Both the position numbers and the translations under genes were made by a program. DNA of 45,506 nt from Raillietiella orientalis (Eukaryota), in contig JAYWIR010000109.1 in NCBI GenBank assembly GCA_036172245.1, positions 124,001 through 169,506 of the forward strand, read 5' to 3'. This document shows positions 17,934-45,506 of this stretch, piece after piece. The notes beneath the pieces are model-generated. The model searched no databases, was not told where the DNA came from, and saw only the letters and a program-made list of their open reading frames with translations. How positions within the stretch are numbered: position 1 is the first letter of the stretch; every line of letters starts with the position of its first letter.

Positions 17934-17992
17934 CGTTGCCAATTTAGTACTCAATGAAAAAGCTTCTTTTGCTACTGTGCAATTGAGGTTTT

Positions 17993-18290: not shown

Positions 18291-18371
18291 TGCCATACAG
18301 ATTTTATTGCAAGGTTTCAGCGCATGCTTGGGAAAGATGTTTTTTACCCAATTGGGTTTGATGATAATGGG
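18291..18371 (+). pseudogene. valS: Fragment of valyl-tRNA synthetase (Rickettsiales type)
   Basis: Translates [27 protein letters not shown], the segment just after the HIGH motif of ValRS. Confidence 0.85.
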
Positions 18372-18609
18372 TCAAGCATTATAGACCTGTTTATATTATA
18401 GAGTTTTTGTGTAATTTGAGTGATCAGCAGCGTCACTTAACTTAATTTGTAGCGCTATGAACCATATTTGATTATATAAATCTTCATATCCTGATCCGCT
18501 AGAAGAGTTTTTTCTTAACGTCAATGCTTCATTTGCTAAAGTAATTATTTCATCTAGTGCAACTATGACCTCTCTAATTGCCATCAGGCAGTGGCGAAGC
18601 AATTTGCTA

Positions 18610-18975
18610 AAGATGGATAAAGGTGGGTAAAGAAGAAAGGGATTATGAAAATTTTGAACTGAGTGAAAGTGAAGAAGAACTTCATTTATACCTAGTTGAT
18701 GACAACTTGAGTGATATTGCATCTGAATTATTGTGAAAGGGCGACGAAGAATCGGAATTATTGAGAGTGAAAACTCTTTCGGAGAAGATGGATGGGGGTC
18801 GATAGAACGGATAGCAAAAGAATTCCAAAAAGGATTAATTCTACAGTACCGCCCGGGGTCACTGGACCCCAGATTGCATCTAACATTGTATGGAACCAAT
18901 AGAAGGCTTCTGGTTATTTTTCACAGAAGAGCTTGTCAAGGGGATCATCGAAGCAAAAAGAATCATCGCAGCGAA
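18610..18975 (+). mobile_element. Degenerate piggyBac-like transposase N-terminal relic
   Basis: Acidic stretch (DYENFELSESEEE...DDNLSDIASE), then PGVTGPQ at 18852 and, after a frameshift, PIEGFWLFFTEELVKGIIEA near 18896. This resembles the piggyBac PxxxFxLFFTxExxxxIV motif. Stops and frameshifts present. Confidence 0.5.
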
Positions 18976-24900: not shown

Positions 24901-25489
24901 TCCTGTTCCTGCTGCTGGTGTCGAGCGTTTTGTTGATGACTGAGTAGTCGTTTCTTCCTAAAAATGTGTATGGCGTAGTATAGATTTGACTGAAATAGGT
25001 GCAGAGATTTTGGTCTCCGTACTTATTTGAAGACATTTTTGTGCTGGCACTGGTAGCAATTTTTGTCTTGTTTGTCCGCTTTAGAACTTGCTTCATCATA
25101 GGTGTCCATTTCACGATTGCAGCGTCATTAAACCTATTTTTGTTCCATTTGCTGCAGCGATGCCGGGGAATTCTGATTGAATCAGGATTCCTTGATGTAC
25201 GCACGGAGAATTTATCATCCTCATCAGTTGGGTTTCACACGCTGTTAGCGTGCATGATAAAAAGTAGAGGTTGGATGCCTCTTTTTTCGGGACATTGAAA
25301 GGTCGCTGCAGCATGGCAGCGAGCTCCACCGCTGCTCGCTCGTAAGCGAAGTCATCTCCGACGTACACCACCGCCTGGTTCGCCTGCGGTGCGTTGTCCA
25401 AGGGTGGCGTCCAGCGACAAGTTCAGCAGCGCTGCGCTGGTCGATCGTGGGAACGTGCTCCACAACAACGCTGCACGGGCGTGCCTTGC

Positions 25490-27206
25490 GTAGCTCCTCG
25501 AGCGCAATTCTTTTTTTTCGTCTTTGTGTGGTCTTGTGTACGTCCATTCGGATGTCCTTGGCCCTAACACAAGAGAGGATGGATTTGGAGACTGCAGCCT
25601 GCACTGGAGTTTCCACCCCGGATGCTCGGCCGCCTCTAATGATTCTGTCTCGCCACCCGAAAGAAGCTGCACCTCCGTCGTCAAGGCAGCAGCAGCAAAC
25701 AGGGCACCGCCTGACGAAGCCGAGTTACAGTCATATACAGCCCATGGCTACAAGCCTGCTCTCTGCTATCAGTGAGTGCTATCTCCGAGAGGGTCGGAGA
25801 AAATCTTTCGGATGAGCTCGAACACGTCGGGGACTGGCAGGACGTCTCTTGGCTGTCATGCCTGTGAAAATGCCTGGACACTATGAGGTGCACTGTAAAG
25901 AGGCAGTCCTAGTCCAACGCCTTAGCACCTCGCTGAACATACACGGGAACGGGGTCGTCCCGTCGGTCATGGACCAGTCGATCGTGGTCCGATTGTCCGC
26001 CTTCCAGATTGTCCGATCGCGTGCTCGTCGGTGCACTCAGTGCATTCGCCACGGTGCACGCGCTATGGAGAGCAGACAATCCAAGTAAAAGGATAGCATC
26101 TCCACAGCAGACTTGCCATGGAGCATGTCACCATAGTGGATCGGAGGCTAATGGTGGGCGATGCGATCGTCCACCTTAAGTTTGCCGGTCAACGACCGGC
26201 TTGCGGCATTTGCTGTGCAGAGGGCCACCGTCCATGGAAGTACCCTTCTCTCAAGTGCCGCTACTGCAAACTGCTCGGTCACTCCATTAAGTAGTGCACC
26301 GAGATGAAGCGAAAGCGTCAGGCGAGGAATCGCCACCAATTGTCCCCATCCACCCCGAAAACTTCCCCCGCTGTACCCCGGGAGAAATCGGGCGCGAATG
26401 ATGCGGCTTCATCGAGTGGCGGCCACGCAAAAAGGGCGTGGTTGCTCCAGGGAAGCCACCATCTCAGGCAGCCGCGCAAGCGGGGAAGATGCCACGTCGC
26501 TCTGGGGGCAAATCGTCCCTCTCGAAGCAGCCTAAGAGTGTACCCACGCACTCAACGGAGGCTGCTGGGCCATCTACGTCCGTTTCCGCGCCCAGCAGAA
26601 AACAGGAAACCGTGAGCGGACACCCTCGGAACTGCCCCTGGACGGACGTGCCCCCTAAGTCCGAGGAGAGCACGCCGTCCACGGCGAAAACACTGGCTGC
26701 GAAGGCTGCAGTAGCGCATCGCGCGACGGCGGCAATGAACGCCGTTTTGCCCGCACCAGCGAAGGAGCAGGTGCAGCGGGCAACGATGACGGAACCGTCT
26801 CGTCGCGAGCGCGAAATCTGAGCCGGCAGCTCCGGACAAACAGGCGAGGCAGGCGTCGGCCTCCCAGGATGGCGTTCCCGACGACGGCGACGCGGGCTGG
26901 ACTCGGGTAGCCAGGACACCCACAAAGGGGAAGAAGGTAGACCCTTCGCAATTCCCCATACTGAAGGTAAATGGAAGGAAGAAGCGAAACGCCGAAGAAG
27001 CTGCATATCCAGGTACGCACTACGGCTGCGTGCTCTGTTCTATCGCTTCCCGCGAGGGCGGCTGCAGAAGCCAAAGCGCCGGGGGCTGCGTTGGCGACTG
27101 CGGCGACCCCCGCGCGGGCAGGGCAAGCCTTCACCTGCCGGTACACCAAGAGACAGGCAAAACGCTAGTCTCGCACTTGGCATTCGGACTCCGAAGTAAA
27201 GTCCGA
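25490..27206 (+). mobile_element. Tx1-like LINE 5' portion (degenerate ORF1), + strand
   Basis: Frameshifted pieces match the ORF1 at 35.9-37.5 kb: QSYTAHGYKPALCY vs QAYVASGYIPALRY; VQRLSTSLNIHGNGVVPSVMD vs VQRLLRSPLTIGGKEVLPSVMD; SAFATVHALWR vs AKFATVHALWR; knuckles CGICCAEGH and CRYCKLLGH at ~26200-26295. Candidate ATG at 25552. Confidence 0.8.
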
Positions 27207-27656
27207 TTTTCACCCGAATTTCGCCGGGGCGTTTATTGAAAAATAAACTTTTACAAACACGTGCAGTGGCTGGACCAATGCTCCAGCCACGCACGAAGAA
27301 ACAGCCTGACGGGTATCCGGATCTCAGACCGGTACGGTCCACCACGGCAGCAGGGGGAAGGGGAAAAAACAAAACAAAAAAAAAGAAAAGAAGTGGGAGG
27401 GTACAGGAAGGGATCACTGTTGCTGCTGGGGCCGTTGCATCCTTTGCAGGATGCCGGCAAGCTCTTTCTGTATTCGAGGATCCCGGTGGGGCCATCTCGA
27501 CGTCCTCAGGAATTGGGCGGCGCCTAGGAAGGCACCCTTGTCGCGTGGTCCTCCCGTAGCGGTGCATCATGCGGCGAAGATCCCGCGAAGGCAGCACAAG
27601 GCTGCTATCGAGGCCGCTGGCCGAAGGGCGTCGGCAACGAAGAGGGCTTTTAGTTG
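27207..27656 (-). mobile_element. Tx1-like LINE copy A (ORF2 C-terminus and 3'UTR only)
   Basis: LFVADALRPAASIAALCCLRGI matches copy B LFVQDALRPAAALAALCCVRGI. T-rich tract and AATAAA terminal motif at 27207-27237. Confidence 0.85.
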
Positions 27657-30600
27657 CCACCCGGTCACGCCGGGGCGTTTATTAAAAATTCTCTATAATT
27701 GTGGTATATGGCCCCACTACGGCCAACACAACTGGACCTGCCGGGTTGCCGATACGCAGATCGGCGCGACTCACCTCGGCAGCGGAAGGGGGTGGGGGGA
27801 AAAACAAAAAGAAAAATAAAACATAAAAAACAAAAAGATTTTGGTGGGCGGGGAAGGAATCACGGTCCACTGCGAGGAGAATCCATCCTTTCCAGGATGC
27901 CCTCCAGGTCCGTCCGTATTCTTCCCAGATGGGGCCATCTGGTCGCAATCCGCAGGTAGCGGACTGCAAGTTCGACGGCATCCCTTTCGTGGCTCGGTCT
28001 TCCGACGTCACTCCAGCACGTCACAATCCCACGGACGCAGCAAAGTGCAGCCAGGGCAGCGGCTGGTCGCAGGGCATCCTGCACGAACAGAAGCCGAAAA
28101 ACGTCTCTGGGCTGGCTGCCCTCCTGGATGCGTAGGGAGGCACGAAGACGTTCCCACAGGGGCCGGAGGGCAGCACAATCAATAAGGAGGTGGGGGAGGG
28201 TTTCCCGCTCTCCGCACCTGATGCACTCGGGATTCACTCGACCCCTGGTCCAGTGGTGGCGGCGTGCGTTGCAGGGGAGGCCCCAATGCAACAACAGAAG
28301 TGCCGACTCCTGCCACTTCAGGGGGAGGATCCTCGATCCAATCAATACTGGGGGCCACTTCAGTTCATCCGTCTGGATGTCGAGCAGCTCGCCCCATCTC
28401 AGGAGTCCACGCGGAAGGACACTTCGGGTCGTGGCGTCAACCAGCTGCCCCGTGGTCCAGCCGCTCATTTGCTTCTCTTTGCCTGCGATACGGCAGGAGA
28501 CTTGCCACCTAGGCTTGCGGCTGCTGGAGAGCGCCCTCCTCAGGTAGGGCAACGCCGTAGCTAGGGGGGTTGTCTCCGCCCACATGCTTCTCGCGGGACA
28601 CTGGAGTATCTTCCGGAGAGTGCAGCGGGAATAGGCGCCGCGTCGCAGGCAGTTCCACATCTCTGAGTTCTGCTCTTTGATCTTCGCCCACGTGCCAGCG
28701 GTCTCCTCCAGCCATGCGGAGGAGTTGGCGGGGCTGCATTCCATCCAGCCGTTTTCCTTTGCCAGGGTTGCCATGCGTCCCAGGAGGAGTCCGCATCTCT
28801 TGATCTTCGAGCCGCGGCACAGAAGATGAGACGCGAGACCCTCCGTTCCGGATACACGGCTGGCAAGGAGTCGGGCCGGAACGCACCATGGGGTGCTCCA
28901 TAACTTCGCTGCGATGGCCAGGGTGCGCCATCGCAGCTGGATTTCTACTCTCTCCACCGTCAAGAGGCCCAGACCGCCATCCCGACGTGGAGCACACAAG
29001 TCCTTCAACTGGACTCGGGGCTCCCTCTTCCCCAAAGGGCAATCCTCAGGAGGTCCTTCGTCCTTTTTTTCATGTCTCTGGGGACGGGGCAAACAAAAAG
29101 CAGGGGGCGGAGGATGGGAGCCGCAAAGGAGTTCCACACCGCGGCCCGTTCCGGAAGCAGGAACTTGTCTTCCAAGAACGGGCCGATCGCCGTTTCCACT
29201 TTTTGGAGGCAGCCGGACCACGCATCCGAAGGGGAGTAATCCCCCAACGGCACACCGAGGTACTTCAAGCACCTCGCCGAGGTGATCCCCAAACGGACCC
29301 AGTCCTGCTGCCCAGCCCACGTCGCACCGACTGGCATCACGGACGACTTAGCCCTGTTCATCGTAAGTCCGGTTCCCCGATTCAGCAGGTCGAAGAACTT
29401 CTCGACCGCCGCAGCCGGGGTGGACATAGGGAGCAGCAGCAGAAGGACGTCCGCGTATGCTGAAACGGCCGGCGTACCGGCACATTCGTGCGGCAGGTGC
29501 GCCAGAGTTCCCCTGTACGCTCTCAGTACCAACTCGAAGGAGGTACTGAAGAGCAAGGGGCTCAGGCTGTCTCCCTGCCGTATCCCACGCCCCATCGTCA
29601 TGCCGTGCACGGTCTGCCCGCTGAAAGTATGAGAAATTAACGCGTCGCGCCAACTGGAGCGGAGATAGGCCAATAATGAGGCCGGGGAGCCCAAGCGTTC
29701 CAAAAGCTCCAGCAGGATATTCTGGTCGACGCTGTCGAGTGCTTTACGCAAGTCCACAGCGACCGCAAGTGCTCCCTCCCCCATCCGACCATCCGTCGCA
29801 TGACTGACGGACTCACCGGAATTCCCGGTGCGCATCAAGCCCCTTTCGTGTTGGAGCTCTAGCCAGGTGGAAGCGTGGAACAGGTTCGCCTCCATGCTTC
29901 GCCCCGGAACAGCATACGTCTGTTCCGGGCTGATGAAGGCGTTTGCAACCCGTACCAGGCTCTCAGCCCAAACCTTAGCTATCAACCTGGCATCCGCATT
30001 CTCTATTGTGACGGGACGCCAGTTCACGCTCCTCAGGTCTCCTCCCTTAGGGAGGAGCCGCACCTTTGCCGAGCGAAAGGAGGCGGTAACGCCACCTGTC
30101 TCGCGTATCAGCAAGATGAGTTGATGTACCAGGGGGGTAAGCTCAGCCGCGATAGTTTGATAAAACTCCGCATGCAGGCCGTCCTCCCCTGGAGCCTCGC
30201 GCATGTTGAGCTTTCCGATGGCCGTGGGGATCTCGTCCATCGTGAAAGGCTCGTCGAGGGACTTTCCTCCCGGATCGCTGGAGCGCCTTCCGGAAGCAGG
30301 AGTCGTGAGACATCCCGCTCGGGAGATCTTGCGTATAGGGAGGTGTAGAATCTCCGCAGCAGGCCGTGGATTTGGACGGGTGCCGAGTGCCCCTGGCCCT
30401 GATCATCCAGCAAGCTGGCCGATCCGAACTTCCAGGCTTGCCTCTCGGCTCCCGCTTTGTACTCCGGCAGCCCGCGGATGTCGGGGGTCCTGGCGTAACG
30501 TCTGGCGTGCAGGTAGGCTCGTTCTTTACGGATTCCGTTCCCAAATCCCGCAGGTAGGCGGTTGAAAGGGAACTGGTCGCAGAACTCCTGGTCCGACCGA

Positions 30601-30995
30601 TTGAAGCGGTCCCAGTCCTGGTGTGTCCGCAGCCTGAAGCTCCGTTTGAACGTGCTGTGATGTTCCGCCGCGTCCTGGAGCTTCAGCCCGTCCCCTGGGA
30701 GACGCAATGCTGACGAGGGGGGCCCTGACGGGCGGATGAACCTCGAGCAGGATAGGGCGATGGTCGGAGAGCTCGCACGGTAACTAGCCGCGCCTGCTCA
30801 CGCGAGGGCATAGGTGTTCGTTTAGGAACACGTGGTCGATGCTGTCCTGCACGCCTGGTTCACTGGCCAACAAATTACAGGTGTGCACCGCCGTGCACAC
30901 CTCGTTGATCAGGTCCCATTCGTGATTCGGCCCTCTGGCTTCAGGCGAACGTTAAAGTCGCCTGCAACCGAAGTGGAGTCCGAGTGCAAACCTAA
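27657..30995 (-). mobile_element. Tx1-like LINE copy B, 5'-truncated within the APE endonuclease; frameshifted ORF2
   Basis: AGDFN (~30960), IDHVF and LSDHR endonuclease motifs; APGEDGL, NWRPVT, GIRQGDSLSPLLF, YADV (mutated YADD) and KYLG RT motifs; CIRCGERETLPHLLIDC zinc motif; terminal motif at 27658-27683. Confidence 0.92.
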
Positions 30996-31182
30996 AGAGC
31001 GCGTATCCCGAGGTAGCCCTGGAGCGCGACGGGCTACAGCGCAAGTACGAGTCTGTTGGCGGAAGCGATTCCGGCCCCTGCTCGGAGCCCGAAGCGATGA
31101 TTTTCGGCTCGAAGGACTCAGCTGGGTGCGATGCGACGGTGATCGATAGCTAGTCCGCTTCCCAATCCGCAGTGCTGCCAGT

Positions 31183-31425
31183 TTACTGCTCGCCGGACGC
31201 GTTTGTACATATTTCCCTTAGCTGATTCAAACTAGAGTGGACACCCTCGGATATGTTCTCCATATGTTCGTCTGTTGGTTTGTATTGGGTGATTAGAGCA
31301 TCTAGATTGGCCTTATGCTTTGGGGTCGTTATCCATCCCTTATAGTCGTTTATACTGTTAAAGGCTGGTCCCCATATAATCTCAGATATTCCTTTCCTAC
31401 AGGTGGCACAGTTTTGTACAGTTTT
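31183..31425 (-). other. Non-LINE insert carrying an 80-codon open frame (C-terminal fragment of an unknown protein)
   Basis: Manual translation KTVQNCATCRKGISEIIWGPAFNSINDYKGWITTPKHKANLDALITQYKPTDEHMENISEGVHSSLNQLREICTNASGEQ*. More AT-rich than the flanking LINEs and absent from other copies. Confidence 0.45.
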
Positions 31426-34020
31426 TCACCCGGGTGAGGCAGGGCTTTTATTATTAAAACTTTTTACAAGAAAAAATTCCATACTAAAGTCCTTTTTCTT
31501 TTCACTGTTTTGAATGTTTTTTTCAGCAGTAACACGTTCCGCTGTCTTGGGGCACTTGTCATTACCGACCCGTAGACCGATAAGGTCTTCCACATTGGCG
31601 CAGGGGCGGGAAAAAAAAGAAAAAAAAAAAAAAGAAAAACGCCTTGGGGGGGGGGGCAGTTTTATGGGAGGGGGGCAAGGGTGGGGATAACGGTACGCCG
31701 TGAGGAGGCCTCTGCACCCTGCTTCGGATGCGAACAAGTGCCGGTAAATGTTATCGAAGTCGGCGCCAACGGCATGGCTTCTCCAAAGAGATGGCTACCC
31801 AGTGAATGGCATTCCGACTGGTCCGGCCTCTCCGTGACTCGGTCCACTTGTCCAGGATTCCGCGTATGCAACAGAGCACTGCTACACACCCGGAGGCTAG
31901 CAAGGTGTCCCGCATCAGGAGTCGAAAAATGTTCTTGGGTACGCCCTCCGGAATGTTGAGGATCGACGAGTGTCGGTCCCACATATCGCGGAGGGCAACA
32001 CACTTTGGAATCAAGTGGGGGAAGGTCTGCCTTTCCCCTCACTCTGTGCAGTTGGCATCCACATTCTCCGATGTCCAGTGAGACAGGCGTGCTCTGCTTA
32101 AAAGTCCCCAATGGAACAGAAGCAACGCCGTCTCCTGCCACTGCAGGGGAAGGGTGCCGTTGTCCCAAGACGCTGGGGGCCACTTCACCTCCTCCGGAGC
32201 TACGTTGAGCAGCGCGCCCCAGCGTACAAGTCCACTCGGCGAGACAGTCGGGGTACTAGCGTCCGCTAGTTCCCGGGATGTCCACGCCTTCATCCGTTTT
32301 TTCCTGCCTCCGATGAGGCAGGACACTTCCCACGATGCCTCCTGTTGACTGTTCCTGGCTTCTATGAGGGAGGGCAGCACGGGGGCAAGGGGGGTGAAGG
32401 AAGCCCACAGAAGTTCCCGTGGGTTGGAAACGATCTCCTGCAGTGGCTGGCCAGCGCACGTGCCTCGACGGAGGCAGAAGTCCACATCGCTGGAACCGTT
32501 GACTTTTGCCCACGGGGAAACGGACTCCTGTAGCCAGGTAGTCCAGTCCGCGGGGTTGCAGGAGATCCACGGATTCTCCCTCTCCAGGGCAACCAGATCG
32601 GTAAATGGTTAAGACTAAGGTCGTTGGCTACCAGGATTGGGGTCAATCCGTAGCAGCCGGTTGCCCTGTGGGCGAGGAGTCTTGCGGGAGCACACTAAGG
32701 TGCTGGCCAATTCTTTGCCACAAGGGCAAGTTTTCGAAATTGCAGCTGTCGCACCATGTGCTCCAACGTGAGGAGACCAAGTCCACCGTCCCTGCTTAGA
32801 GCGCACAAGTCTTTAAGCCGGACGCGGAACCTCCCCTTTCCCCAAAGGGCGATGCGCAGGAGGTCCTTTGTGTTTTTTTCTATTCCCATGGGGATGGGGC
32901 AAACAAAAAGTAGGAGGCGAAGGATGGGAGCCGCAAACGCGTTCCATACCGCGGCCCGTTCCGGCAAGAGGAACTTGCCCTCCAGGAACGGGACGATCAC
33001 CAACTGCACTTTCTGGAGACGGCCTGACCAGGCTTCTGACGGGCAGAAGTTTCCCAGCGGAACGCCAAGGTACTTCAGATATGCGCCCGTCGGGATCCCC
33101 AGGCGGATCCAGTCAGGCCGTCCTTCCCACGTCGCTCCAACTGCCACCATCGACGATTTTGCCCTTTTGACTCGTAGCCCTGTCCCACGGCTTAGCAGGT
33201 CGAAGAAATATTCGACTGCCGTTGCCGGGGCGGACATTGGGAGCAGGAGCAGCAGATCGTCGGTATATGCGGACACGGCAGGCGTGCCGGGGCACGAGCT
33301 TGGCAAGGCAGCCAAAGTCATCCTGTAAGCTCTCAGCACCAACTCGAAGTAAGTACTGAAGAGCAAAGGACTGAGGCTATCTCCCTGTCGAATCCCGTGG
33401 CGCACCGGGAGGCCGTACACGTGTTGTCCTCTGAAAAAGATGTTCGTCAGCACGGCGCGCCAGCAGGAGCACAAGTACGCCGTTAAGGTCGATGGGAAGT
33501 CCATGCGATGCAGAAGCTCCAGAAGCTCCTGGTCCACGCAGTCGAACGCTTTATGGAGATCGACTGCGATCGCTAGGGCACTATTGCCCGCCCGGCTGTC
33601 CCCACCCTGACCAGCGGTCACCCTTAAATTGGGGTTGCAGGGATCCCTTACGTTCTTTAACTTCGCCTTGCACATAAAACCATGTGCTGGCGAAGAACAG
33701 GTTAGCCTCCATACTTCGCCCGGGAACAGCATAAGTCTGCTCCTGGCTAATTACGGATTCGGCTACCTGTCCGAGCCGCGCGGCCCACAGTTTCGCTACC
33801 AACTTGAGTCCGTGTTCACGACCGTGACCCGACGCCACTTCAACTCACTCCTTCCTAAGGAAGGTCTCCTCCCTTAGGAAGGAGCCTCATCCTTGCTGAC
33901 CGGAACGAGGCGGGAACATCGCCTTCTTCCCGGATCAAATGTATCAACCTATGCATCAAGGGGGTGATCTCTGCCGCGAAGCATTGAAAAAACTCCGCGG
34001 GCATCCCTTCCCAGGCTTCC
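31422..34020 (-). mobile_element. Tx1-like LINE copy C (RT through 3' end), degenerate
   Basis: GMPAEFF, LLPKGGDL, AVDLHKAFD, GIRQGDSLSPLLF, AYTDDL and KYLG motifs; C-terminal CTE*GERQTFPHL; terminal motif at 31422-31452. Confidence 0.92.
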
Positions 34021-34087
34021 AAATGACAAGTGTTTTTACTTTTTCTTTTTTTTTTTCTTTTTGTTTTTCCCCCAACCCTATCCGTTG

Positions 34088-35059
34088 ATCGTTGTCCATG
34101 GTCCAAGGACATAGCCTGGAAGCATCGTAATTGGAGATATCACGTACATTCCATCTATCTTGCGACATCTTGTCATAGTTTGGCTCCCAGTTGGAAAATA
34201 CAAGGATGTGGGGCGGGTCAAAATACTTGATGCTTCCTCGGTATTTGGAAGCGAAAATGATACCATTTTTCAAGGTTTCTATAAATCCATACTGGACTAT
34301 TTCCTGGTTATCTCTTGTAAGATCAATGACAATGATTCGTTCACCGTTGTATATGTGGGCTGCATCAGCTTTTTTGCAGCTGTGCATGTATATGCCGTTC
34401 CTTTTAAGGTAAAGAAACTTGGCGAAGGTGGTTTTGCCGTTTACTCCTATTGGGTCGAAATACCAGTATATTTTTCGGTCGTCTGGTGGTGAGCGTATCA
34501 ATTTTAGTATGTCCATTTGCCAGCTGCGTAATTGCAAGTTGGCCATGGGGTTAGGATGTTTTCTGCTTCGTGTTAAACGGAAGCATTCTTTTACGAAGTT
34601 AATGTTCTTGCTATAGAATTTAGTGTGGTTTCTCAATATGTCGAGTTCTGATGCTCCGTTTTCAATTAGTTGGAGTATCTAGGTTGAAATAAAGAGATTG
34701 GTCATTTGAAGTTTGCTTACCATGTCTTGGTAGTCGTTTGTTTCTTTTTCTTGTTGTATCATGCCAAATGTCCAGGCTTCGTGGTCCTCTTTTGTGCAGA
34801 ACCGTAGGTTGCTCTGTGGCGAACCGCGTGCTTTTTCTAGGTGGCACTTCTGGAAGGTTGTGTGCTTTAAAGCAGGAAATGTGCGTGGTTCCTTGAGTTG
34901 CACATATCCCTGAAGGTGCGGTGTTCCAGTGCTTGCTTTCTCTTTGCCAATGATTGCGAAGGTGCAATTTCTTCTGCACCAGTCCTTTATTTGTTGAAGT
35001 TCTTCATCGAGGTAGTTGCACAACGTGAAGCACCAGTATAAGAAGTGGCCGTATGGCAT
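34088..35059 (-). CDS. rep: Endogenous CRESS-DNA virus Rep (HUH endonuclease plus SF3 helicase), with putative 42-nt intron at 34679-34720
   Basis: Motif I CFTLCNY, motif II PHLQG, motif III FCTKE (Tyr replaced by Phe), Walker A GVNGKTT, Walker B IVIDLTR, motif C VFSN, Arg finger SQDRW. The two listed ORFs are in the same frame, separated by one TAG. Confidence 0.95.
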
Positions 35060-35116
35060 GTTGGTGATTGGTAATTCTGTCGAGGTGAGACTGGTTTATG
35101 CCTCATGCTGTGGTGG

Positions 35117-35124
35117 TTTATATA
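35117..35124 (-). promoter_or_regulatory. Putative TATA box for rep
   Basis: TATATAAA on the minus strand about 60 nt upstream of the rep ATG (35059), between the origin and the gene. Confidence 0.55.
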
Positions 35125-35141
35125 CTGGCAAACTGCGCAGT

Positions 35142-35177
35142 ATTTGCAATCTGGTTAGTATTACCCAGATTGCAAAT
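35142..35177 (+). promoter_or_regulatory. Rolling-circle replication origin stem-loop with nonanucleotide TAGTATTAC
   Basis: ATTTGCAATCTGG-tTAGTATTAC-CCAGATTGCAAAT: perfect 13-bp stem, nonamer at 35156-35164 on the strand opposite the rep coding strand. Confidence 0.95.
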
Positions 35178-35375
35178 GTCTTCGTCGGCAAAACCTTGGA
35201 AATTCTGTCGAGGTGAGACTGGTTTATGCCTCATGCTGTGGTGGTGTGGGGTGTCAAGTCGGTCTGCGCACCGACCACCTGACAGTTCCATAGAATTATT
35301 GGCTGCAGCAGGTCCTTGTACCGCAAACACTGTAAGTTTCTTTTAAATAAACGCCCCGGCTTGAACGGTTGAAAA

Positions 35376-37623
35376 CGTACGAGGAAAGCGACACCGCACG
35401 TACGTGCGACGCCGCACCTATAATGTAGCGTTCCGCCCGCGCGCCGTTCGATTTCGGCAGCCTGCTCGTCGGAGATGCTGTGAATCTCCTGCAGAAGCGT
35501 CAAGTCTAAGGCGCGCAGAGCGTTAGCCACTAGTCGCCTCTTCTCGTCGAGCTGGAGCCCTTTGACGTTCCAGCACCCTTTGACGTTGCCACACGACGAG
35601 AAGACGCGATTGCCCTCATCACGGCTGGGAAAGCGAGGCCGTGGTGGTCGTCTAAGCCGGCGAGCGGGCAGTAACCAGTACGACGGGCTGGAGGGCGCGG
35701 TCGCCACTGGCCTGCACCGTGCTGGCGTAATCGAGTGCTCCTCCCCGGGTGCAAAACCTGTGGGTTCCGGGGTGAGCACTCGCCGTTCCGCGGCGAGTGT
35801 GTCACGCCTCAGGGCTTCAGCCCTGCGGGCGTTCGCTCCGGCGCGAGTAACTCGTCGTTCAGCGGCGTTATCGGACTCCTTTACGGAGTCTGATGCTCGC
35901 GCGATCGACGTGCGTTTGCATCCGTCCGATCGCACCGGAATCGTCTTCTCGGCGGTCACAGAGGCGTACTTGCAATTGTTGACGGCGCTGGCTTTTTCCT
36001 GGGCAGAAGAACCCTCCGCGCGTGTTCGTATTCTCGTGACTGGTTTTTGCTTTGGAAGAGCTCAGGGATGAAGGCTGCGAAGTTTTTTTTGGAGATTTTT
36101 CTTTCCTCCTCTCCACAAACTTCCATTCGCCTTCACGATTTTCGGAGGCTTCCGCGTCAGAAGTTACGGAAACCTCCGGGATTTTCGCTGCGGTATCTGG
36201 AGGCGTTGCTTTCGCTACGCCTTTAAAAGGCGCCAACGGAGTCACCTTGGCAGTCGAGAGATTGCTCCCCTCCTGCCGAGTCGGCGATGGGGCGACGGCA
36301 TGCAGCGTGCTCTTCCGCTGCTTTTTACGCTTTCGTAGCCATCGCAGAGGGCCCTGCGTTGCATTGGGCCTCTGGGAAACTCGGAAGAGACATCGGAATG
36401 GCACAGGAAGTGCTCGTACTGTTGCGATCTTCCTGCTTTCCTACTTTGTGTCCAGGGGTTTTGGGATATTTCCTGGTTGCTGGCTCGGAAAGGTCCCGGC
36501 GAGTTCGGCAGCCAGGGCGGGCTCGGCACGCTTCGAGCCCTCGCATCCCTTTTTAATTTCCTTCCCCGCCGTGATTTCTCCCTTTCGAGGCGTTGCGGGC
36601 GGGGACGCCTGTTGTTTAGCCGCGTATTACTTGGCTCTTTTGCCAAGACTCCGCAGACACTGTTGTTTCTTGGGGGCAGCGGCCTTTCTTGCGTTGGTCT
36701 CTTGAACGCGACGAACTTACGCTGCTGCCCTTTTTTTTGCAAGTACCGGGCACTTTTTTATTTCGTGCCCGGTTTCTTTGCAGTAGCGGCATTTCGGGGT
36801 GGGACATTCCTTCATTCGGTGTCCCTCCTTGCCGCACTGCTCGCATGCGCGAGTGTGGCCTATGAACCACAGGTGAACGACCGTGCCGTTCACCTGCAGC
36901 TGCTCAGGCTCAACACGCCTGTTCGCGACGGTGATCTGCACGGAGACTTGTCCGATGTGGACAGAGGGGAAATCCTTTAGAGGATTTGGTCTCCTCCACA
37001 GAGCGTGCACGGTGGCGAACTTCGCTAGCACGCTGACGACATCGCTGTCGGAGATTTCCGGCTCGATGTCGCACAATTGAACAACAAAAGAGGCGTCCAT
37101 CACGGAGGGCAGGACTTCCTTGCCACCGATGGTCAGCGGACTACGGAGAAGGCGCTGCACAAATGCCGCGTTCTTGCACCGTATCTTCGTGTATTCCATC
37201 CTGCCTGCAGGCATGATGGCAAGTTCCTTCGAACGCCGATCCGGACGAGCTCATCGTTGAGCTCATGCGCGGTCCTCCCGTTAAGGGGACAACTGACCTT
37301 ATAACGGAGTGCGGGAATGTAGCCGGATGCCACATAGGCCTGCGACTCCGCATCGCAGGGTCCTGCTCCCTGGGAGGTGACGGCGGCGTAGCTCCTCACC
37401 GAAGGCGAGGAAACCGTCACGGAGGATGCGGCCGCTTCCATTCCAATTGAATTGGATTCAACGGCTTGCTCCTCCACACCATTCTCAGAACTGGACATGC
37501 TGCACAACGCTGCTTGGTTGACTTGGCAGAAACACACAAGTGCGAGCGAAAACGCAGGCACAAATATGCTCAATCGCGGACGGGGTGAGAAGGGAAAACA
37601 CGTCTGTACTGTGGGAGCGCAGA
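35376..37623 (-). mobile_element. Tx1-like LINE 5' portion: 5'UTR, frameshifted ORF1 (ATG 37498) and start of the ORF2 endonuclease (ATG 35619)
   Basis: ORF1 has RSYAAV and two CCHC knuckles (CEQCGKEGHRMKEC, CRYCKETGHEIKKC). ORF2 begins with APE motifs WNVKGL, LLQEIH and GVAFL, then breaks at 35376. Confidence 0.9.
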
Positions 37624-39757
37624 TTTCTCACCCGGTCACGCAGGGGCGTTTATTTCATATAACATAAACAAAAACAATTATATAAAATAATCCAGTTGGG
37701 AACCCTGCTCCCAACCGACGACTGAACAAGGATCAAGAGTAGATTGCTGGCACTGAGGCCAGAATAACACAGAACGGTGTGGGGAACTGGGAACACAAAC
37801 AAACAAATACAAAAGAAAAAGAAATCAATGGGGACGCCATGACAAGGGACTTTGGGATTGCTCTGGTTCGCACTGGGATAAAAGTAATCCCACCGGCAGT
37901 TTAGCAGAGCGAGCGGGGAAGAGGTATGGGTGGGCTACAGTTCAGAGTGATCACCGGATTACGCCGTTCTTGAAAGTCTGTAAACCGGCGATGGATGCCG
38001 GTGATGTCCTCTTTGACCTCTTCACGAAGATGAGGCCACATAGCAGCCTTTTCCATGGATTCTGCTGCAAACCGGTGAGCCTCCCTTCGCTGCGCCGACA
38101 ACTCAAGGGCGTAGCGGGCCTTCACGATGTAGCGAATGCAGCACATGGTTGCGACAATCGCGCCTACCGAAAGTCCATTCCTGCTGAAGAATCGTCGCAG
38201 CACATCAATGGCAGTGCCACCCTGCGGCAGGATGGCTGAAATCAACCTTCGCCACAGTTCACGGAGGTCACCAGCAAGAGGTGCGTAAAAGACTCGATCT
38301 CTCCGCACCTCAAACAGTTTGGCAGAGCAGCTCCCCCGGAAACGATGCTTCGTTGCCTATTACAGTGGAAGCCCCAGTGTAAAAAGAGTAGCACATCTTG
38401 TTTCCACTTTAAGGGGAACACTGAGCTGTCCAAACAAACGGGGGGAACCACCAGCTCTTCGGGGGTTACACTTAAATGTTCACTCCATCGAAGCAGGCCC
38501 TTCGCCCGATTACGAGGAGTGGCAGTTTCCACCAGCTCCTTTGTCGTCCAGCCGCCGAGGAGCATACAGACTCCCGCTATTGTGCAGAACTCCCATTTCG
38601 CCGGTAGGCAACTGTCGTCGCTTGCCCTGAGGGCAGACAGCGCTGCGGCGAGTGGTGTGGCGGCCAGACGATCCGTCTTCTTGTCCTGCATGACTTCGTC
38701 CATTGGATGACTGAGGAGAAGTCGCAGGCGTCGAAGATCTTCCGGGCGCGTTCCTTCGGAAGCTGCCCACGATGAAAAAAATTCCTGCCGCCATGCATTA
38801 ATGTTCATGGGCGGCAGGAGATCCAACATTGGGCTTCCAGCAGTGAGGACAGCTGCCTCAGCGGGAAGCCAAACCCCATTCTGGTGTGCGGAAAGTGGGG
38901 CAGCAACGAAAGCAGTCCCTCGCTTCCTGTGCAGCGCCTTAGTATAAGGCGTGTGGGTAAGCACCACGGCGTACACCACAGCCTGGCACAGAGCCGCAGC
39001 ATTCGAAACTGCACCTGCAGCTCGACGCTGTTTAAGTCGAGGATGCCCGAGCCTGCATCCTGACGCGGCGCCACTAAGTCTTTAAGTCTTTCGCGAGATC
39101 TTGCAGCGCCCCACAACGTTTTGCGTAGGGGGCGCTGCGCCCAGACTTTGAATTCCTGGTGGGGTGGCCAAACAGAAAACAGGGGGCGGAGGAGGGGGGC
39201 AACGAAGGTGTTCCAGATGATGGCCGGTTCCGGCAAGACGAATTCGCCTCCTGAGAACGGGCCAAGTGCACGCTCTGCCTTCCGAAGACAGCCCGACCAC
39301 GCTTCTGAGATGCAGAAGTCTCCCAACGGCACGCCAAGGTACCTCAGGTACCTGTTCGTGGGGATCCCCAGGCGGATCCTGTCGGACTGCCCCTCCGACA
39401 TCGCTCCCACCGCAACAACCATGCACTTGCTCCTGTTGACGCTCACGCCCGCACCGCGGCGGATCAACTCAAAGAAATTTTCAAGCGACGCCGCCGGGGT
39501 GGACATGGACAATAGGAGAAGCAGGTCGTCGGCATGGGCTGCCAAGGCCGGCGTACCTGGACAGGAGCTCGGCAGGTTGGCTAGCGTCAGCCTGTAAGCC
39601 TCCAGCACCAATTCGAAATAGCTGCTAAAGAGCGGCGGGCTTAAGCTATTGTCCTGCCTAATTCCTCGCCGTACCGGCACGCCGTATACGCGACAGCCAC
39701 AAAACAATGGATGTAATCGCGTGGCGCCAGTAGGAGCGCAAGTACGGCAACAGGGAT
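37624..39757 (-). mobile_element. Tx1-like LINE copy D (divergent subfamily; RT C-terminal half through 3' end)
   Basis: GIRQDNSLSPPLF, AHADDL, RYLG and CLRCGEIESFTHLLL motifs; terminal motif at 37624-37654. Confidence 0.9.
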
Positions 39758-39779
39758 GCCGTACTTGCGCTTGCCGTAC

Positions 39780-40745
39780 GAGGGTATTACACATTTTAGT
39801 GCATTATTCATTGGGAATTTTACATGGAGGTAATTATCTTGTGGGTAGAGAGAGGAAGACTAGTCATAGGAGGTGTACCATTGCGGGGGAGAGCTTTTTC
39901 TGTAGCAGACAACGGATTCTGTTTTGTTGAATTAATCATATGCAGGGGGTTACAAGTTATTAGGGGAGTTATTCTAGGGAGATTGACGGTGTTTGCGGGA
40001 AGCTGGACTTGGCCTGGGGCAGAAATCATTTGGGATGGGGAAACTGAGCTTGAACGAGAACGAAAACTGGAAATCTTCGCATTATGCAAGGGGATCTCTG
40101 AAGATGATCTTTTGGGATATAATGGTATTCCAGCAGGAGAGGTGTTTTTCAGGAAAACACATTCCCTTGTTGCAAGCTCTGCAAACGAGGAAGTGTTTTC
40201 GAAAGGATAAATTATGGCAGGAAAGAAAATGGTGTTTCAATTTTTCAATAGGATTCTCCTGAATGCTCGTATTAGTTAAGAATGAGCAAGTCGGGATTAA
40301 GCATTTAAAGCTAGAAGCAATGGGAAATTTAACCAGCAATAACTGATTTGTAGTTAATGCGAGGTCATCATTGCATATGGGTCGCAACTTTACAAAACTT
40401 AGAGGGGGTGTGGTCGATTGTGGACGAAGTGGTGAGGACGAATGAGACTTCGGAGCATGAAATGCAGATTTTGAGTAAGCATCACAAGATCGCAGGGAAC
40501 ATTGCCACAAATTTTGCTAATTGGGCTGGAAAACCTGACCTGTTTGACAGAACTAATTAAAGGTTTAGAACTAATTAAAGTAACATGCAAATCTTTGGAA
40601 TTTGGTACAAGTGAAGAATTGTCAGAGAGACCAGAGGGCGAACAAGATTGCAATATGTTCTCAGGAATGATTGCAGGAGGCGAATCCATAGGCGGATTAA
40701 TAGCAATGTCCGACATAGGCATAGGTGAGGAATCCCAACACATCC
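39780..40745 (-). mobile_element. AT-rich fragment resembling the N-terminal zinc-finger region of a NeSL/Utopia-type (RLE) retrotransposon
   Basis: LLVKFPIASSFKCLIPTC...LKHHFLSCH...CRACNKGMCFPEKHLSC gives FP-Cx4C...Hx4H...Cx2C...HxxC, flanked by Ser/Pro-rich sequence. Contains a frameshift and stops. Confidence 0.55.
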
Positions 40746-42768
40746 GTTAGCTCCCGAGTCGTACACGTCTTTAAAGGTTTTCTCCTGCCTCGCATGAGGC
40801 AGGACACTTCCCACGATGCCCGCTCGTTGCTGCTCCTAATGTTTTTCAGGGAGGACAGAACGGGGGCAAGGGGGGTGATAGAAGCCCACAGAAACTTCCG
40901 GGGCGTGTTGACAATCTCCTGCAGCGGCTGTCGAGCGTACGGTCCTCGACGTAGGCAGTTGTATTCCGGCTCGCTCGTGCCGTTGATCTTAGCCCACGCG
41001 GAGACTGACTCCTAAAGCCAGGCAGTGCAGTTCGCGGGGAGGCAGGAGATCCAGGTATTCTCTCTCATCAGGGCGACCATCTGGCGCAGATGGAAGCCCC
41101 AGGTGGTACTGAGGCTGCGCTGGTAGGTCACGAGGATCGAGGACAATCCTTCGCAGCCGGTCGCTTTTCTGGCGAGGACCCGTGCCGGATCGCACCATGG
41201 CGTCATCCATAAGCTAGCCGCGAGGGCTAGCTTTCGAAATGAAATTTGGTGTTGCATGCGCTCCATCGCAAGGAGGCCCAAACCACCGTCCCTGCGTGGA
41301 GCGCACAAGTCTTTCAATCGGACTCGCGACCTCGCTGTGCCCCAAAGGGCAGTCCTCTAGAGGGCTTTGGTCCATCTCTGTATGATGGGAGGGGCGGGGC
41401 AAACAAAAAGTAAGGGGCGAAGGAGGGAGGCCGCAAACGCGCTCCACGCCGCGGCCCGTTCATGCAGGAAGAACCTGCCGTCCTGGAACGGGCCGATCGC
41501 CGCCTGAGCCTTCTGAAGGCAGCCGGACCACGCTTCCGCAGATGAGTAATCCCCCAACGGCACACCAAGGTACTTGAACTACCTCACCGTGGGGATCCCC
41601 AAACGGACCCAGTCCTGCTGCCCTGCCCAAGCCGCTCCGACTGGCATTACGGACGACTTCGCCCTGTTCACCGTCAGTCCTGTTCCCCGACTCAGCAGGT
41701 CGAAGAAGTCCTCGACCGCCGAGGCCGGGGTGGACATAGGCAGCAGCAGCAGAAGGTCGTCCGCGTACGCCGAAACCGCTGGCGTACCGGGACAATCGCA
41801 CGGCAGGTGCGCCAGAGTCTCCCTGTACGCTCTCAGCACCAATTAGAAATGGGCGCTGAAGAGCAAGGGGCTGAGACTGTCTCCCTGCCGTATGCCGCGT
41901 CGCACCGGTACGCCGTACACGGTGGATCCACTGAAAAAGACATTAATAAGCGATTCGCGCCAGCTGGAGCGCAGGTAGGCCAGCAAAGAGGCCGGGAAGC
42001 CCAAGCGTTCCAGAAGCTATAAAAGGAGATTCTGGTCGACGCAATCGAACGCTTTACGCAGATCGACTGCGACCGCAAGGGCACCGGGCGCGGCTCTTCC
42101 ATGAAGGGCGTCCCCTCCCTGGTCAGAGGAGAATCCAGGATTCTCTTGACCTCCCTGGTCTTCGCTTTGTTGCAACTGCCACCATGTACTGGCGAGGAAC
42201 AGGTTGGCCTCCATGCTTCGTCCGGGAACAGCGTATGTCTGCTCCGGACTCACCACGGATTCCGCCACCCGTCCCAGTCGCTCAGCCCAAAGCTTGGCAA
42301 GCAACTTCGCATCCGCATTCACTACTCTGATGGGACGCCAGTTGCCTACGTTGCGATTGTCTCCTCCTTTCGGCAGGAGACGTATTCTAGCTGACCGGAA
42401 CGATTTGGGGACGTCCCCTTGTTCTCGGATCAGCATGCAAAGCCCATGCACCAGGGGGGCCAGCTCCGCCACGAAGCCTTGGTAGAACTCCGCGGGCAGA
42501 CCGTCTTCCCCTGGTACTTTCCTCTTTCTGAGCTTTCCGATGGCGGAGACGATCTCCGTCATCGAGAAAGGTTCCTCGAGTTGATGTGTCTGCTCCTCCT
42601 GTAGCGCGGGGGCGCCTTGCGGCAGCAAGCGCTGCGCCACGGCGCGCTCTGTTGTTCTACGCGCGTACAAGAAGGAGGAATAGTCAGGCAGGATGCGGTT
42701 TCTTTTCGCCGGAGCTGAGCATTCCTGGCCTTGGGCATCCAGCAAGCTGGCCGACCCGGATTGCCAGG
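40746..42768 (-). mobile_element. Tx1-like LINE internal ORF2 fragment (copy D2; lacks both ends)
   Basis: VPGEDGLPAEFY, NWRPI, AVDLRKAFDCVD and AYADDL motifs. Breaks off after WEVSCLM and has no terminal motif. Confidence 0.9.
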
Positions 42769-45230: not shown

Positions 45231-45506
45231 GGGAGTCCACTGCGGAACTGGTCTTGCGGGATTGAGAGAGGCACGAATCATGCCTACTGATATTCCGATG
45301 GCTGGAATTTCTTCATATAGATTGTGATTATTGACATCTATGATGCCATATAGACCGGGGGTGCCGTCTACAACCTGAGTTGGTAGAGGCGGGAAGGATG
45401 GGTACAAATGTTGCCCATTCTTGGTTGTCGTCGCGCCTAATCCAGTTAGATATAGGCGGATGGGTTCGACAAGGTTGAAGGACTGAACTCCCGCCTGCTG
45501 AACAGT
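45231..45506 (-). other. Endogenous partiti-like (dsRNA) virus capsid fragment, running off the window edge
   Basis: Frame is open from the window end: TVQQAGVQSFNLVEPIRLYLTGLGATTTKNGQHLYPSFPPLPTQVVDGTPGLYGIIDVNNHNLYEEIPAIGIS. PIxLYLxxxG, GQHLYP and HNLYEEIP are recalled from arthropod partiti-like capsids. Confidence 0.7.

Follow-up and report, generated by a model that had tools for sequence, protein, structure and literature searches.

A CRESS-DNA virus Rep gene and origin

The window, the whole stretch of DNA that was analysed, comprises 45,506 nt of Raillietiella orientalis sequence (contig JAYWIR010000109.1, positions 124,001 to 169,506). A 1158-nt fragment of a CRESS-DNA virus occupies positions 34088..35245 on its minus strand and carries a Rep gene, an origin and a duplicated 50-nt stretch, without a capsid gene. 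The fragment has a GC content of 0.42, compared with ~0.57 in both flanks, and in a self-comparison of the window it matched only its own 50-nt repeat. When 79 related viral contigs were compared with the window by tblastx, 362 of the 452 HSPs fell inside 34000-35199 and the remainder were isolated and weak; in particular, no viral homology that could correspond to a capsid gene was detected beyond this interval. Rather than a closed circular unit, the fragment is linear and has LINE UTR at both ends. It is an endogenous viral element, the viral sequence being contiguous with host LINE UTR on both sides in this one assembled window.

Rep is encoded in two exons. Exon 1 (34721..35059, minus strand, 113 codons) specifies an HUH endonuclease domain (Pfam Viral_Rep, E 4.7e-15) and matched Rep endonuclease domains in the PDB with E-values of 4.7e-16 to 4e-13. 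The match to 7kii had an E-value of 4.7e-16, five further Rep chains, which we take to be of the circovirus type, gave ~1e-13, and another set, presumably of the nanovirus type, gave 4e-5, values that are only a hint as to the virus family. HUH motif I reads CFTLCNY and motif II reads HLQGY (PHLQGY), and residues T12, N15, H48, L49 and Q50 are invariant in an alignment with 12 homologues. Motif III is RFCTKE, with a Phe at codon 87 (34801-34799) in the position of the catalytic Tyr; all 12 aligned homologues have Tyr in this column, and the YxxK signature is missing from the window Rep. Judged by these motifs, the protein belongs by descent to the Rep family of CRESS-DNA viruses (Cressdnaviricota) but lacks the nicking residue.

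A 42-nt intron (34679..34720, minus strand, GTAAGC...CCTAG), in frame and containing a TAG, separates the two exons. The 14 residues and the stop that it encodes are absent from each of the 12 aligned homologues, which have a gap there, and the residues flanking the exon join are contiguous in two relatives, L003 and L004. Exon 2 (34088..34678, minus strand, 197 codons) has the Walker A (GVNGKT), Walker B (IVIDL) and motif C (FSN) sequences of an SF3 helicase, with G205, G208, K209, D246 and N290 all falling in invariant columns of the alignment; Pfam RNA_helicase matched at E 0.0021, which is under its cut-off. The Rep frame is open across 310 codons. Its natural stop codon was lost at the left junction, which the frame crosses without a stop to reach 33956 (ORF 33956..34678), adding 44 LINE-derived codons. 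Because Phe stands in the catalytic Tyr position and the natural stop is gone, Rep is predicted to be no longer able to start rolling-circle replication. A TATA-like TATATAA at 35118..35124 (minus strand), read from the sequence ~60 nt upstream of the Rep ATG, may be a promoter element of the gene. Rep has 173 homologues at E<=1e-3 (best 7.3e-47), with local identities of 25-51%; the best of them are 30-40% identical across the full length and lie on contigs of 1-3 kb, and no near-identical Rep was present among the 173.

The origin is a stem-loop at 35142..35177 (plus strand), with a 13-bp stem (ATTTGCAATCTGG/CCAGATTGCAAAT) and the loop TTAGTATTAC, and with the nonanucleotide TAGTATTAC at 35156-35164. 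MFE and centroid folding both gave the hairpin, which was also recovered as an inverted repeat. It lies 83 nt from the Rep ATG, on the strand opposite Rep, the stem-loop-beside-Rep arrangement of CRESS viruses. Two 50-nt direct repeats bracket the origin: R1 (35068..35117, plus strand), which contains CTGTCGAGGTGAG, lies between the Rep start and the origin, and R2 (35196..35245, plus strand) abuts the right virus/UTR junction. The two copies are 98% identical and 128 nt apart. Repeats around the origin in the relatives are at most 14 nt long (median 8) once contig-end redundancy is set aside, and the only long direct repeats found there are such redundancy. A full Rep-only replicon with terminal redundancy was considered and rejected, as the 128 nt between R1 and R2 is not unit length. 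Exact scans of IMG/VR gave no matches to the origin hairpin and none to the core of the 50-nt repeat.

The interrupted UTR and the nested LINEs

The viral fragment separates two halves of a LINE 3'UTR, here called element X. The left half (34026..34087, plus strand) consists of a T-tract and CCCCCAACCCTATCCGTTG, ends in ...CCCTATCCGTTG and aligns to the T-tract part of five other UTRs in the window. The right half (35246..35376, plus strand) contains hairpin 1 (35258-35275), AATAAA at 35346 and a terminal hairpin, and ends in ...GGTTGAAAAC; it aligns to the other UTRs from GGTG...CGGTCTGCG (hairpin 1) through the terminal motif. The original prediction held that a piece comprising Rep and the origin sits inside a LINE 3'UTR with little loss, a claim that hinged on the flanks aligning formally to the family UTR. 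They do align: with 34088-35245 removed by script, X could be aligned end to end with UTR copy B (141 of 182 positions identical) with a score of 149, whereas shuffled controls (n=200) had a mean of 9.3 and a maximum of 31. The observation is thereby confirmed as real, in the viral identity and anatomy of the fragment as well as in the continuity of the UTR around it. By eye, the T-tract and AATAAA are ~1270 nt apart in X compared with ~100-165 nt in the other five UTRs, and hairpin 1 and the terminal motif still lie downstream of the viral piece, both as predicted.

At the insertion point, the loss of target sequence amounts to 2 nt ('CC' at the joint), and both joints have microhomology, with CGTTG repeated on the left and GTGG on the right. 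R2, at the right joint, may have been copied from a template and inserted in the course of end joining. The 50-nt repeat has a 12/13 match to the UTR sequence across the insertion point in copy B, which hints at a process more specific than random end joining.

X has the T-tract, hairpin 1 with its CGGTCTGCG core and the terminal AATAAACGCCCCGGC...GGTGAAAAC of the LINE family 3'UTR. With up to one mismatch allowed, the terminal motif AATAAACGCCCCGGC has six occurrences in the window, where 0.05 would be expected; five of them are on the minus strand, and the sole plus-strand one is that at 35346. In the consensus structure of the UTR, hairpin 1 has 6 bp and the terminal hairpin 5 bp. Hairpin 1 is retained in X, together with three of the five terminal pairs, the other two being broken in the alignment as read by eye. 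Since zf-RVT-bearing ORFs lie immediately before the UTRs in copies B and D, the UTR family is tied to LINE ORF2. The terminal motif was also found at three metagenomic loci, none similar to the window by blastn or tblastx, and these were taken as chance matches. X itself is a tail-only, 5'-truncated, plus-strand LINE copy that begins at the T-tract, without LINE promoter or ORFs.

All RT-bearing LINEs nearby are on the minus strand, as was every HSP obtained by tblastn with nine L1-like proteins. The UTR setting originally proposed is therefore upheld in that a LINE 3'UTR is interrupted, but this is not the UTR of the adjoining LINE ORFs, which lie on the opposite strand. LINE C (31421..34018, minus strand) is 5'-truncated and consists of RT (RVT_1, E 2.9e-12) followed by its own 3'UTR, with the terminal motif at 31438-31452. 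Its homology to two other copies stops at ~34012-34018, ~10 nt from the start of X, such that the 5' ends of LINE C and X abut head to head. ORF2 of LINE C is broken into at least five stop-to-stop frames.

On the other side of X, LINE Y (35381..37620, minus strand) has ORF1 with a CCHC knuckle (36717-37250; zf-CCHC, 3.5e-7) and the N-terminal third of APE (Exo_endo_phos, 1e-5). The APE part runs from 35572 down to ~35380, where it is cut off by X, and matches positions 8-53 of a 10-sequence APE profile (E 1.5e-5). LINE B (27655..31208, minus strand) carries the remaining APE domain, RT (RVT_1, 1.1e-15), zf-RVT and UTR copy B. Its matches to the APE profile are weak (E 0.23 to 15) but collinear, at positions 144-161, 204-222 and 228-242. 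Tblastn with the nine L1-like proteins gave RT and no APE in LINE B, and a Pfam search of the short minus-strand frames of 30526-31425 gave nothing useful for this APE half. LINE Y ends near APE profile position 73 and LINE B begins near 66, with a GTA codon in the same phase on both sides. LINE B is probably the continuation of LINE Y, that is, one LINE that has been interrupted; in a one-LINE model the uninterrupted site would read ...CTCGTACAAACGCG....

The tetranucleotide GTAC (35377..35380) adjoins the 3' end of X, and the same bases are found just after the 3' end of LINE C (31419-31416) and again at 31208-31205. GTAC is a candidate 4-bp target-site duplication, although a weak one on its own. 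Between GTACAAAAC and GTACAAAC lies an AT-rich piece of ~200 nt (31209..31410), which has no other copy in the window and no Pfam match at or above the curated cut-off. A head-to-head X/C pair, bracketed by GTAC and lying inside the endonuclease domain of LINE Y/B, looks like a product of target-primed reverse transcription. This pair, with its flanking GTAC, shows that reverse transcription delivered the tail, and is silent on whether the virus was already inside it. The strands and the nesting of the LINEs are as firmly established as the viral anatomy. Between the C/X joint and the viral part, inverted matches of 10 nt were at about chance level for 1.5 kb and were dropped.

Order of events and alternative explanations

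We think it probable that the tail came first and that the virus entered it later as double-stranded DNA, by microhomology end joining. A tail-only, 5'-truncated copy of an L1-like LINE would have been laid down by target-primed reverse transcription, in inverted orientation within the endonuclease domain of one LINE and fused head to head with another that is also 5'-truncated. The entering DNA would have been a subgenomic double-stranded fragment of a small ambisense CRESS-DNA virus, in which Rep, including its short intron, was accompanied by its leader and the origin, the capsid half being absent. Microhomology-assisted end joining would have placed it in a UTR break between the T-tract and hairpin 1, with two bases lost. 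We infer the end-joining mechanism, the 4-bp duplication and this order of events from the arrangement of the sequences. Rep is antisense to the LINE and both the intron and the origin are retained, which is at odds with a copy of a spliced mRNA and with Rep-mediated joining at the nonanucleotide. The basis for placing the tail first is that Rep is open over 310 codons as opposed to the five or more frames of LINE C ORF2; breaks in LINE C that predate its insertion may exist and would weaken this age argument. With the tail first, an order that we regard as probable, X with the virus would be a fossil that cannot move, as opposed to a functional retro-cassette.

Alternatively, the virus might have inserted into the 3'UTR of a source LINE that was transcribed at another locus. 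X would then be a 1.35-kb daughter whose synthesis ended at the T-tract and which was fused to LINE C cDNA. Such a cassette copied via RNA would look alike, because Rep is antisense and the intron would survive in a LINE transcript; intron retention is in fact what this explanation expects. It also agrees with the family 3' terminus of X directly abutting the target GTAC, with hairpin 1 and the terminal hairpin lying 3' of the insert, and with the 5'-truncated head-to-head X/C pair, which, flanked by GTAC and inside a third LINE, has the form to be expected had both nicked strands primed cDNA. Considering the hallmarks of a retro-copy, X has the 3' terminus and the 5' truncation, but the only duplication is the 4-bp GTAC that it shares with LINE C, and an empty tail hit later would show these features too. 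The carnivore circovirus fossils, as far as their source describes them (bioRxiv 10.1101/207399), offer a precedent. However, a single copy is known, with no near-identical Rep among the homologues, and dead tails are expected to far outnumber active source elements as targets. On this alternative Rep and LINE C would also be of the same age, yet there are no frame breaks in the 310 codons of Rep and at least four in LINE C, and two of the five terminal hairpin pairs of X are broken as read by eye. Copying from a transcribed source LINE is accordingly unlikely in our judgement, if worth keeping in view. Slightly more doubtful still is the wider proposal that a LINE lineage acquired a module of Rep and origin within its 3'UTR, ahead of the RNA signals used by the RT, and has since spread it via RNA, X being a 5'-truncated daughter of two-template priming.

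CRESS viruses are common contaminants, and reads of an exogenous virus could have been misjoined into this LINE-rich region during assembly. The locus is known from one copy in one assembly, and an index of sequence runs listed a single DNA run, which contained 0.17 of the sampled words, but none of RNA. When this public DNA run was compared with 33400-36000 at 85% likeness, 52 contigs were placed, and the two that were >=99% alike were both 151 nt long and both inside Rep. The contigs of the run are sparse, with none across 34009-34182 or 35053-35313 and hence none spanning either junction; together with the sharp difference in GC from the flanks, this is compatible with a chimera. A false join would nevertheless neither restore the UTR with 2 nt missing nor produce microhomology at the two joints; the piece is also less than a full circle, is without a capsid gene and has a Rep frame that continues into the UTR, all of which makes an assembly artefact highly improbable. 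LINE template switching is known to make chimeric retrocopies, and the insert lies in a reverse-transcribed LINE tail, raising the possibility that the LINE reverse transcriptase jumped to viral nucleic acid and back during reverse transcription. Two switches would be needed, however, with a return within 2 nt of the departure point, and the piece is antisense to the Rep mRNA and contains a non-transcribed origin and an unspliced intron; we give this route hardly any credence. Finally, and compatible with either order of events, a catalytically disabled Rep could be transcribed from a TATA-like promoter of its own, undergo splicing and act for the host against related viruses, as a dominant negative or in some other way. 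The long open frame in 42%-GC DNA, the intact GT..AG ends of the intron and the retained helicase motifs with Phe at the catalytic Tyr position would be in keeping with such domestication, and there is a parallel in the Reps captured by avipoxviruses, as far as these are described in PMC10193959. A recent insertion accounts for the open frame just as well, though, while the natural stop has been lost with 44 LINE-derived codons appended and the location is a LINE graveyard, so that we regard domestication as improbable.

Related viruses and precedents

The relatives (79 viral contigs) are mostly contigs of 2.0-2.3 kb with the origin just upstream of Rep. Free ambisense CRESS-DNA viruses of ~2 kb among them (IMG/VR L003, L004 and L010) likewise encode a Rep with HUH and SF3 helicase domains. 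In 39 of the 79 the nonanucleotide is antisense to Rep, with the TAGTATTAC stem-loop tens of bases upstream of Rep on the opposite strand as in the window; it is in the sense orientation in 27 and was not found in 13. Compared to these free relatives, the window fragment has no capsid gene and forms no circle, has a 50-nt direct repeat and Phe for Tyr, and lacks a stop of its own.

LINE insertions with an inverted or head-to-head structure arise by twin priming, and LINEs can carry foreign sequence by 3' transduction. The X/C pair resembles a twin-priming product in having two 5'-truncated LINE parts in opposite orientation at one site, with a short duplication. X and C are, however, of different UTR subtypes, each with its own 3' terminus, and therefore two RNAs are needed and not one as in twin priming. 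As with foreign sequence carried by LINEs, the foreign DNA lies ahead of the 3' recognition end of the element, but in the window it is inside the UTR and not downstream of it.

Viral fossils of this kind are already known, and the present one is an example in unusual detail. In the literature on CRESS viruses and non-LTR retrotransposons, we found no precedent closer than the circovirus fossils of carnivores (CVe group 4), which have flanks homologous to non-LTR retrotransposons, are present in 10-20 copies and multiplied 'apparently via retrotransposon-mediated duplication' (Dennis et al., bioRxiv 10.1101/207399). As far as that source describes them, they too are Rep-derived fossils of a small circular ssDNA virus, in or beside a LINE, for which copying by a retroelement has been proposed. 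They differ in that their 10-20 copies are linked to the LINE through flanking homology, whereas one copy is known from the window, and the place where it entered the 3'UTR is fixed to the nucleotide. Unlike the carnivore fossils as described there, the window fossil has kept the origin stem-loop and the intron, and its Rep is only 25-51% locally identical to anything found. If more copies were found to share its junctions, this would be a LINE that carries and multiplies DNA-virus sequence, which in that source is proposed from flanking homology.

According to the parts of PMC10193959 that concern captured and fossil Reps, cressdnavirus Rep genes were captured by avipoxviruses, and draupnirvirus fossils occur in saurians, insects, Chromera velia and Polymyxa betae, that is, in animal and protist genomes. 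As described there, the avipoxvirus Reps are likewise horizontal captures with an inactivated catalytic motif and an otherwise intact frame, the recipient being a poxvirus in that case and a cellular LINE tail in the window. By this parallel, as far as that account goes, the disabled but open Rep is a candidate virus-derived interference gene.

With its junctions resolved at base level, the locus is a worked example of viral DNA entry, in which two bases went missing, each joint has microhomology and 50 nt may have been inserted from a template. Such fossils also reveal which hosts are infected by small circular DNA viruses, most of which are orphans. Because the Rep frame, the 42-nt intron and the origin have been kept, this fossil suggests that a Rep lineage otherwise known only from metagenomes has a eukaryote with short introns as its host. 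Two of the 75 relatives compared (L035 and L052) appear by eye to have a short intron in the same linker.

A viral fragment within a LINE 3'UTR

The stretch at 34088-35245 (1158 nt) has a GC content of 0.42, compared with ~0.57 in its surroundings, and in a self-comparison of the window it matched only its own internal 50-nt repeat. The terminal motif AATAAACGCCCCGGC of the UTR family flanking it is present in six copies in the window (0.05 expected), five of them on the minus strand and one on the plus strand, at 35346. Since the UTR lies directly after ORF2 in two minus-strand LINE copies, B and D, and to judge by position in C as well, the family is the 3'UTR of the LINE. Aligned with MAFFT, the left flank of the insert matches the T-tract and the CCCC...CCGCTG block of the other UTRs, and the right flank matches them from the GGTG...CGGTCTGCG hairpin through the end. 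When the insert was removed by script and the joined flanks were aligned to the UTR of copy B, with 200 shuffles as a control, 141 of 182 positions were identical end to end (score 149; shuffles, mean 9.3 and maximum 31) and just 'CC' was absent at the joint. This formal alignment had been set beforehand as a test of the original prediction that a viral rep and origin lie cleanly inside a LINE 3'UTR; it confirms that observation, clean insertion included. The feature is real, and insertion of a viral piece, recognized by its Pfam Viral_Rep domain and stem-loop origin, into the LINE 3'UTR is supported.

RNA signals had also been expected to persist 3' of the insert. The consensus fold of six UTRs comprises hairpin 1 (6 bp, compensatory changes in five pairs) and a terminal hairpin of 5 bp. 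X, the plus-strand tail-only LINE copy that holds the insert, retains hairpin 1 and, in an alignment read by eye, three of the five terminal-hairpin pairs. The LINE family has no poly(A) tail and its terminus reads ...GGTGAAAA(A/T)C.

The Rep gene, its intron and the origin

The gene on the minus strand of the insert is a Rep of the CRESS-DNA virus type. Its first 113 codons (35059-34721, minus strand) match Pfam Viral_Rep (E 4.7e-15), and the second part (34678-34088, minus strand) carries the SF3 helicase motifs in alignment. When the gene was read through, with X at its single in-frame stop, and searched against a 5.8-billion-cluster protein set, 173 of 529 candidates matched at E<=1e-3 (best 7.3e-47), all on contigs of ~1-3.6 kb. 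Identity to 12 aligned homologues is 31-40%, and motif I (CFTLCNY), motif II (HLQGY), Walker A (GVNGKT), Walker B (IVIDL) and motif C (FSN) fall in invariant or nearly invariant columns. At codon 87, in motif III, the window Rep has Phe (RFCTKE) whereas all 12 homologues have the catalytic Tyr. Lacking its own stop, the frame continues 44 codons past the left junction, to 33956. A PDB sequence search placed the endonuclease domain nearer to chains that we take to be circovirus Rep (E ~1e-13 to 5e-16) than to chains that are presumably nanovirus Rep (4e-5), a hint of its family.

A predicted 42-nt intron occupies 34720-34679, a stretch that would encode 14 residues and a stop, is a gap in all 12 homologues, and starts with GTAAGC and ends with CCTAG; in two related IMG/VR contigs (L003 and L004), the residues on both sides of it are directly contiguous. 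By eye, an in-frame stop was seen in the Rep linker between GTATGT...AG in two of 75 relatives compared, L035 (560-740) and L052 (850-1000), which suggests free relatives with short (~60-75 nt) Rep introns a few codons upstream of the window intron position. On this basis, short Rep introns probably occur in this group of relatives. A stricter pattern search for such linker introns found none among the relatives compared.

The origin (35142-35177), upstream of Rep, folds as a 13-bp stem that closes the loop TTAGTATTAC, in the centroid structure as well as the MFE structure, and its nonanucleotide is on the strand opposite Rep. Among 79 related IMG/VR contigs, the nonanucleotide is antisense to Rep in 39 and sense in 27; none was found in 13. 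Since most of these contigs are 2.0-2.3 kb, the parent was probably a ~2-kb ambisense Rep-plus-capsid virus. Using tblastx with the 79 contigs, 362 of 452 HSPs fell inside 34000-35199, the remainder being isolated and weak, and no capsid-like or other viral similarity was detected elsewhere in the window. This makes the insert roughly half of a viral genome.

Joints of the insert and the surrounding LINEs

Running antisense to the LINE, the insert keeps the unspliced intron and the non-coding origin, and ends in the Rep C-terminal tail and ~70 nt past the stem-loop, neither end being at the nonanucleotide; we therefore argue for its entry as DNA. The same features speak against a copy of Rep mRNA, Rep-mediated joining and template switching alike; the last would have had to return within 2 nt of its departure point. 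Short repeats at the left joint (CGTTG|ATCGTTG) and the right joint (GTGGTGGT|GTGGGGTG), together with a 2-nt loss at the target, are consistent with microhomology-assisted end joining, the donor being a linear double-stranded viral fragment.

A 50-nt direct repeat flanks the origin (R1, 35068-35117; R2, 35196-35245; 49/50 identical), whereas repeats in the relatives are at most 14 nt (median 8), contig-end redundancy set aside. Because both copies start after TTGG and R2 ends exactly at the joint, we propose, by analogy with polymerase-theta-type joining, that R2 may be a templated insertion made during repair. The repeat carries CTGTCGAGGTGAG (35077-35089 and 35205-35217), a 12/13 match to the copy B UTR at 27770-27782, which spans the point equivalent to the viral insertion; the match could reflect chance, homology-guided joining or shared function. 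With up to one mismatch, the 13-mer has no further occurrence in the window. It resembles a 5' splice-site consensus.

Every tblastn HSP of nine L1-like ORF2 proteins lies on the minus strand of the window. Pfam placed RT to the left of the insert (32695-33750, upstream part 33855-34139) and, to its right, an APE endonuclease N-terminus (~35572-35380) and a CCHC ORF1 (36717-37250), all on the minus strand. Since the UTR of X is on the plus strand, it belongs to neither neighbouring LINE. The sole plus-strand LINE coding remnant seen is ORF1-like (25686-26324), with tblastx similarity to the minus-strand ORF1 at 36723-37384. Homology of C, the left neighbour, to two other copies stops at ~34012-34018, and X starts at its own T-tract at ~34026; C and X are therefore two 5'-truncated pieces meeting head to head, at most ~10 nt apart, with their own 3' termini pointing outward (C at 31421, X at 35376). 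Outside this pair, a profile of ten L1-like APE domains matched the right neighbour Y at positions 8-53 (E 1.5e-5) and copy B, left of C, at 144-161, 204-222 and 228-242, matches that are weak (E 0.23, 15 and 4.5) and collinear. By extrapolation of the profile, Y ends at ~position 73 and B begins at ~66, and a GTA codon at the break has identical phase on both sides; Y and B would fit a single older LINE.

GTAC stands immediately beyond both outward 3' ends (35377-35380 and 31419-31416). Two-strand priming is a general model from the L1 twin-priming literature, and by analogy we infer that a staggered break at GTAC may have let both strands prime reverse transcription on two LINE RNAs, the cDNAs then being joined, which would explain the C/X pair. 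Between C and B lies a ~200-nt AT-rich piece (31209-31410), with GTACAAAAC and GTACAAAC on either side, that is single in the window and shows neither a family match nor a LINE-like 3' end; its presence implies that the pair's target site saw a second event. The LINEs of 27200-45506 are arrayed nested or in tandem on the same strand, with X and C within Y/B. Directly beyond the point where copy D reaches its 3' terminus (42775), another copy, 5'-truncated, begins (42772 downward), and copy A, truncated to 450 nt, comes after the end of copy B (27655). Members of the family seem to land in or next to one another.

Order of events, known parallels and other features

The tail of X certainly arrived by reverse transcription, and we lean towards the tail having come first and the virus later. 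That the virus already lay inside a LINE UTR when the tail was reverse-transcribed, making X a retro-copied cassette, we regard as rather unlikely. X does have a retrocopy structure with a proper 3' terminus and RNA signals downstream of the insert, and with an antisense Rep gene a retained intron is expected. However, inactive tails ought to be much commoner as targets than active source elements, and Rep is open over 310 codons whereas LINE C, which would be as old if both members of the pair arose in one event, has its ORF2 broken into at least five frames; no second copy is known, a single copy having been examined. In its present form X, without LINE promoter or ORFs, could be moved only by read-through transcription.

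Animal and protist genomes are well known to carry Rep fossils of small circular DNA viruses (PMC2987831, PMC10193959), and the idea of circovirus fossils embedded in non-LTR retrotransposons is already in print, in a preprint that describes 10-20 copies arising 'apparently via retrotransposon-mediated duplication' (bioRxiv 10.1101/207399). A narrow literature search found no published description of such a locus. What this locus adds is a base-level map of a virus insertion in a LINE 3'UTR, an origin and an intron that were both retained, a head-to-head LINE setting and a divergent Rep lineage. Avipoxviruses have kept captured Reps despite inactivated catalytic motifs (PMC10193959); the window Rep resembles these in its open frame and Phe at the catalytic position, and they offer a testable parallel.

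Elsewhere, an AT-rich island at 14000-25000 (GC 0.34-0.47) lies between GC-rich blocks of 0.57-0.67 and contains, on the minus strand, an ORF (17784-18371) in which Pfam finds an IS630/Tc1-type transposase HTH domain (E 3.5e-11). A GC-rich stop-to-stop frame at 9945-10733 (plus strand) has a partial Kringle match, below cut-off, at residues 117-147 (Pfam E 2.5e-07) and is possibly a host gene exon.
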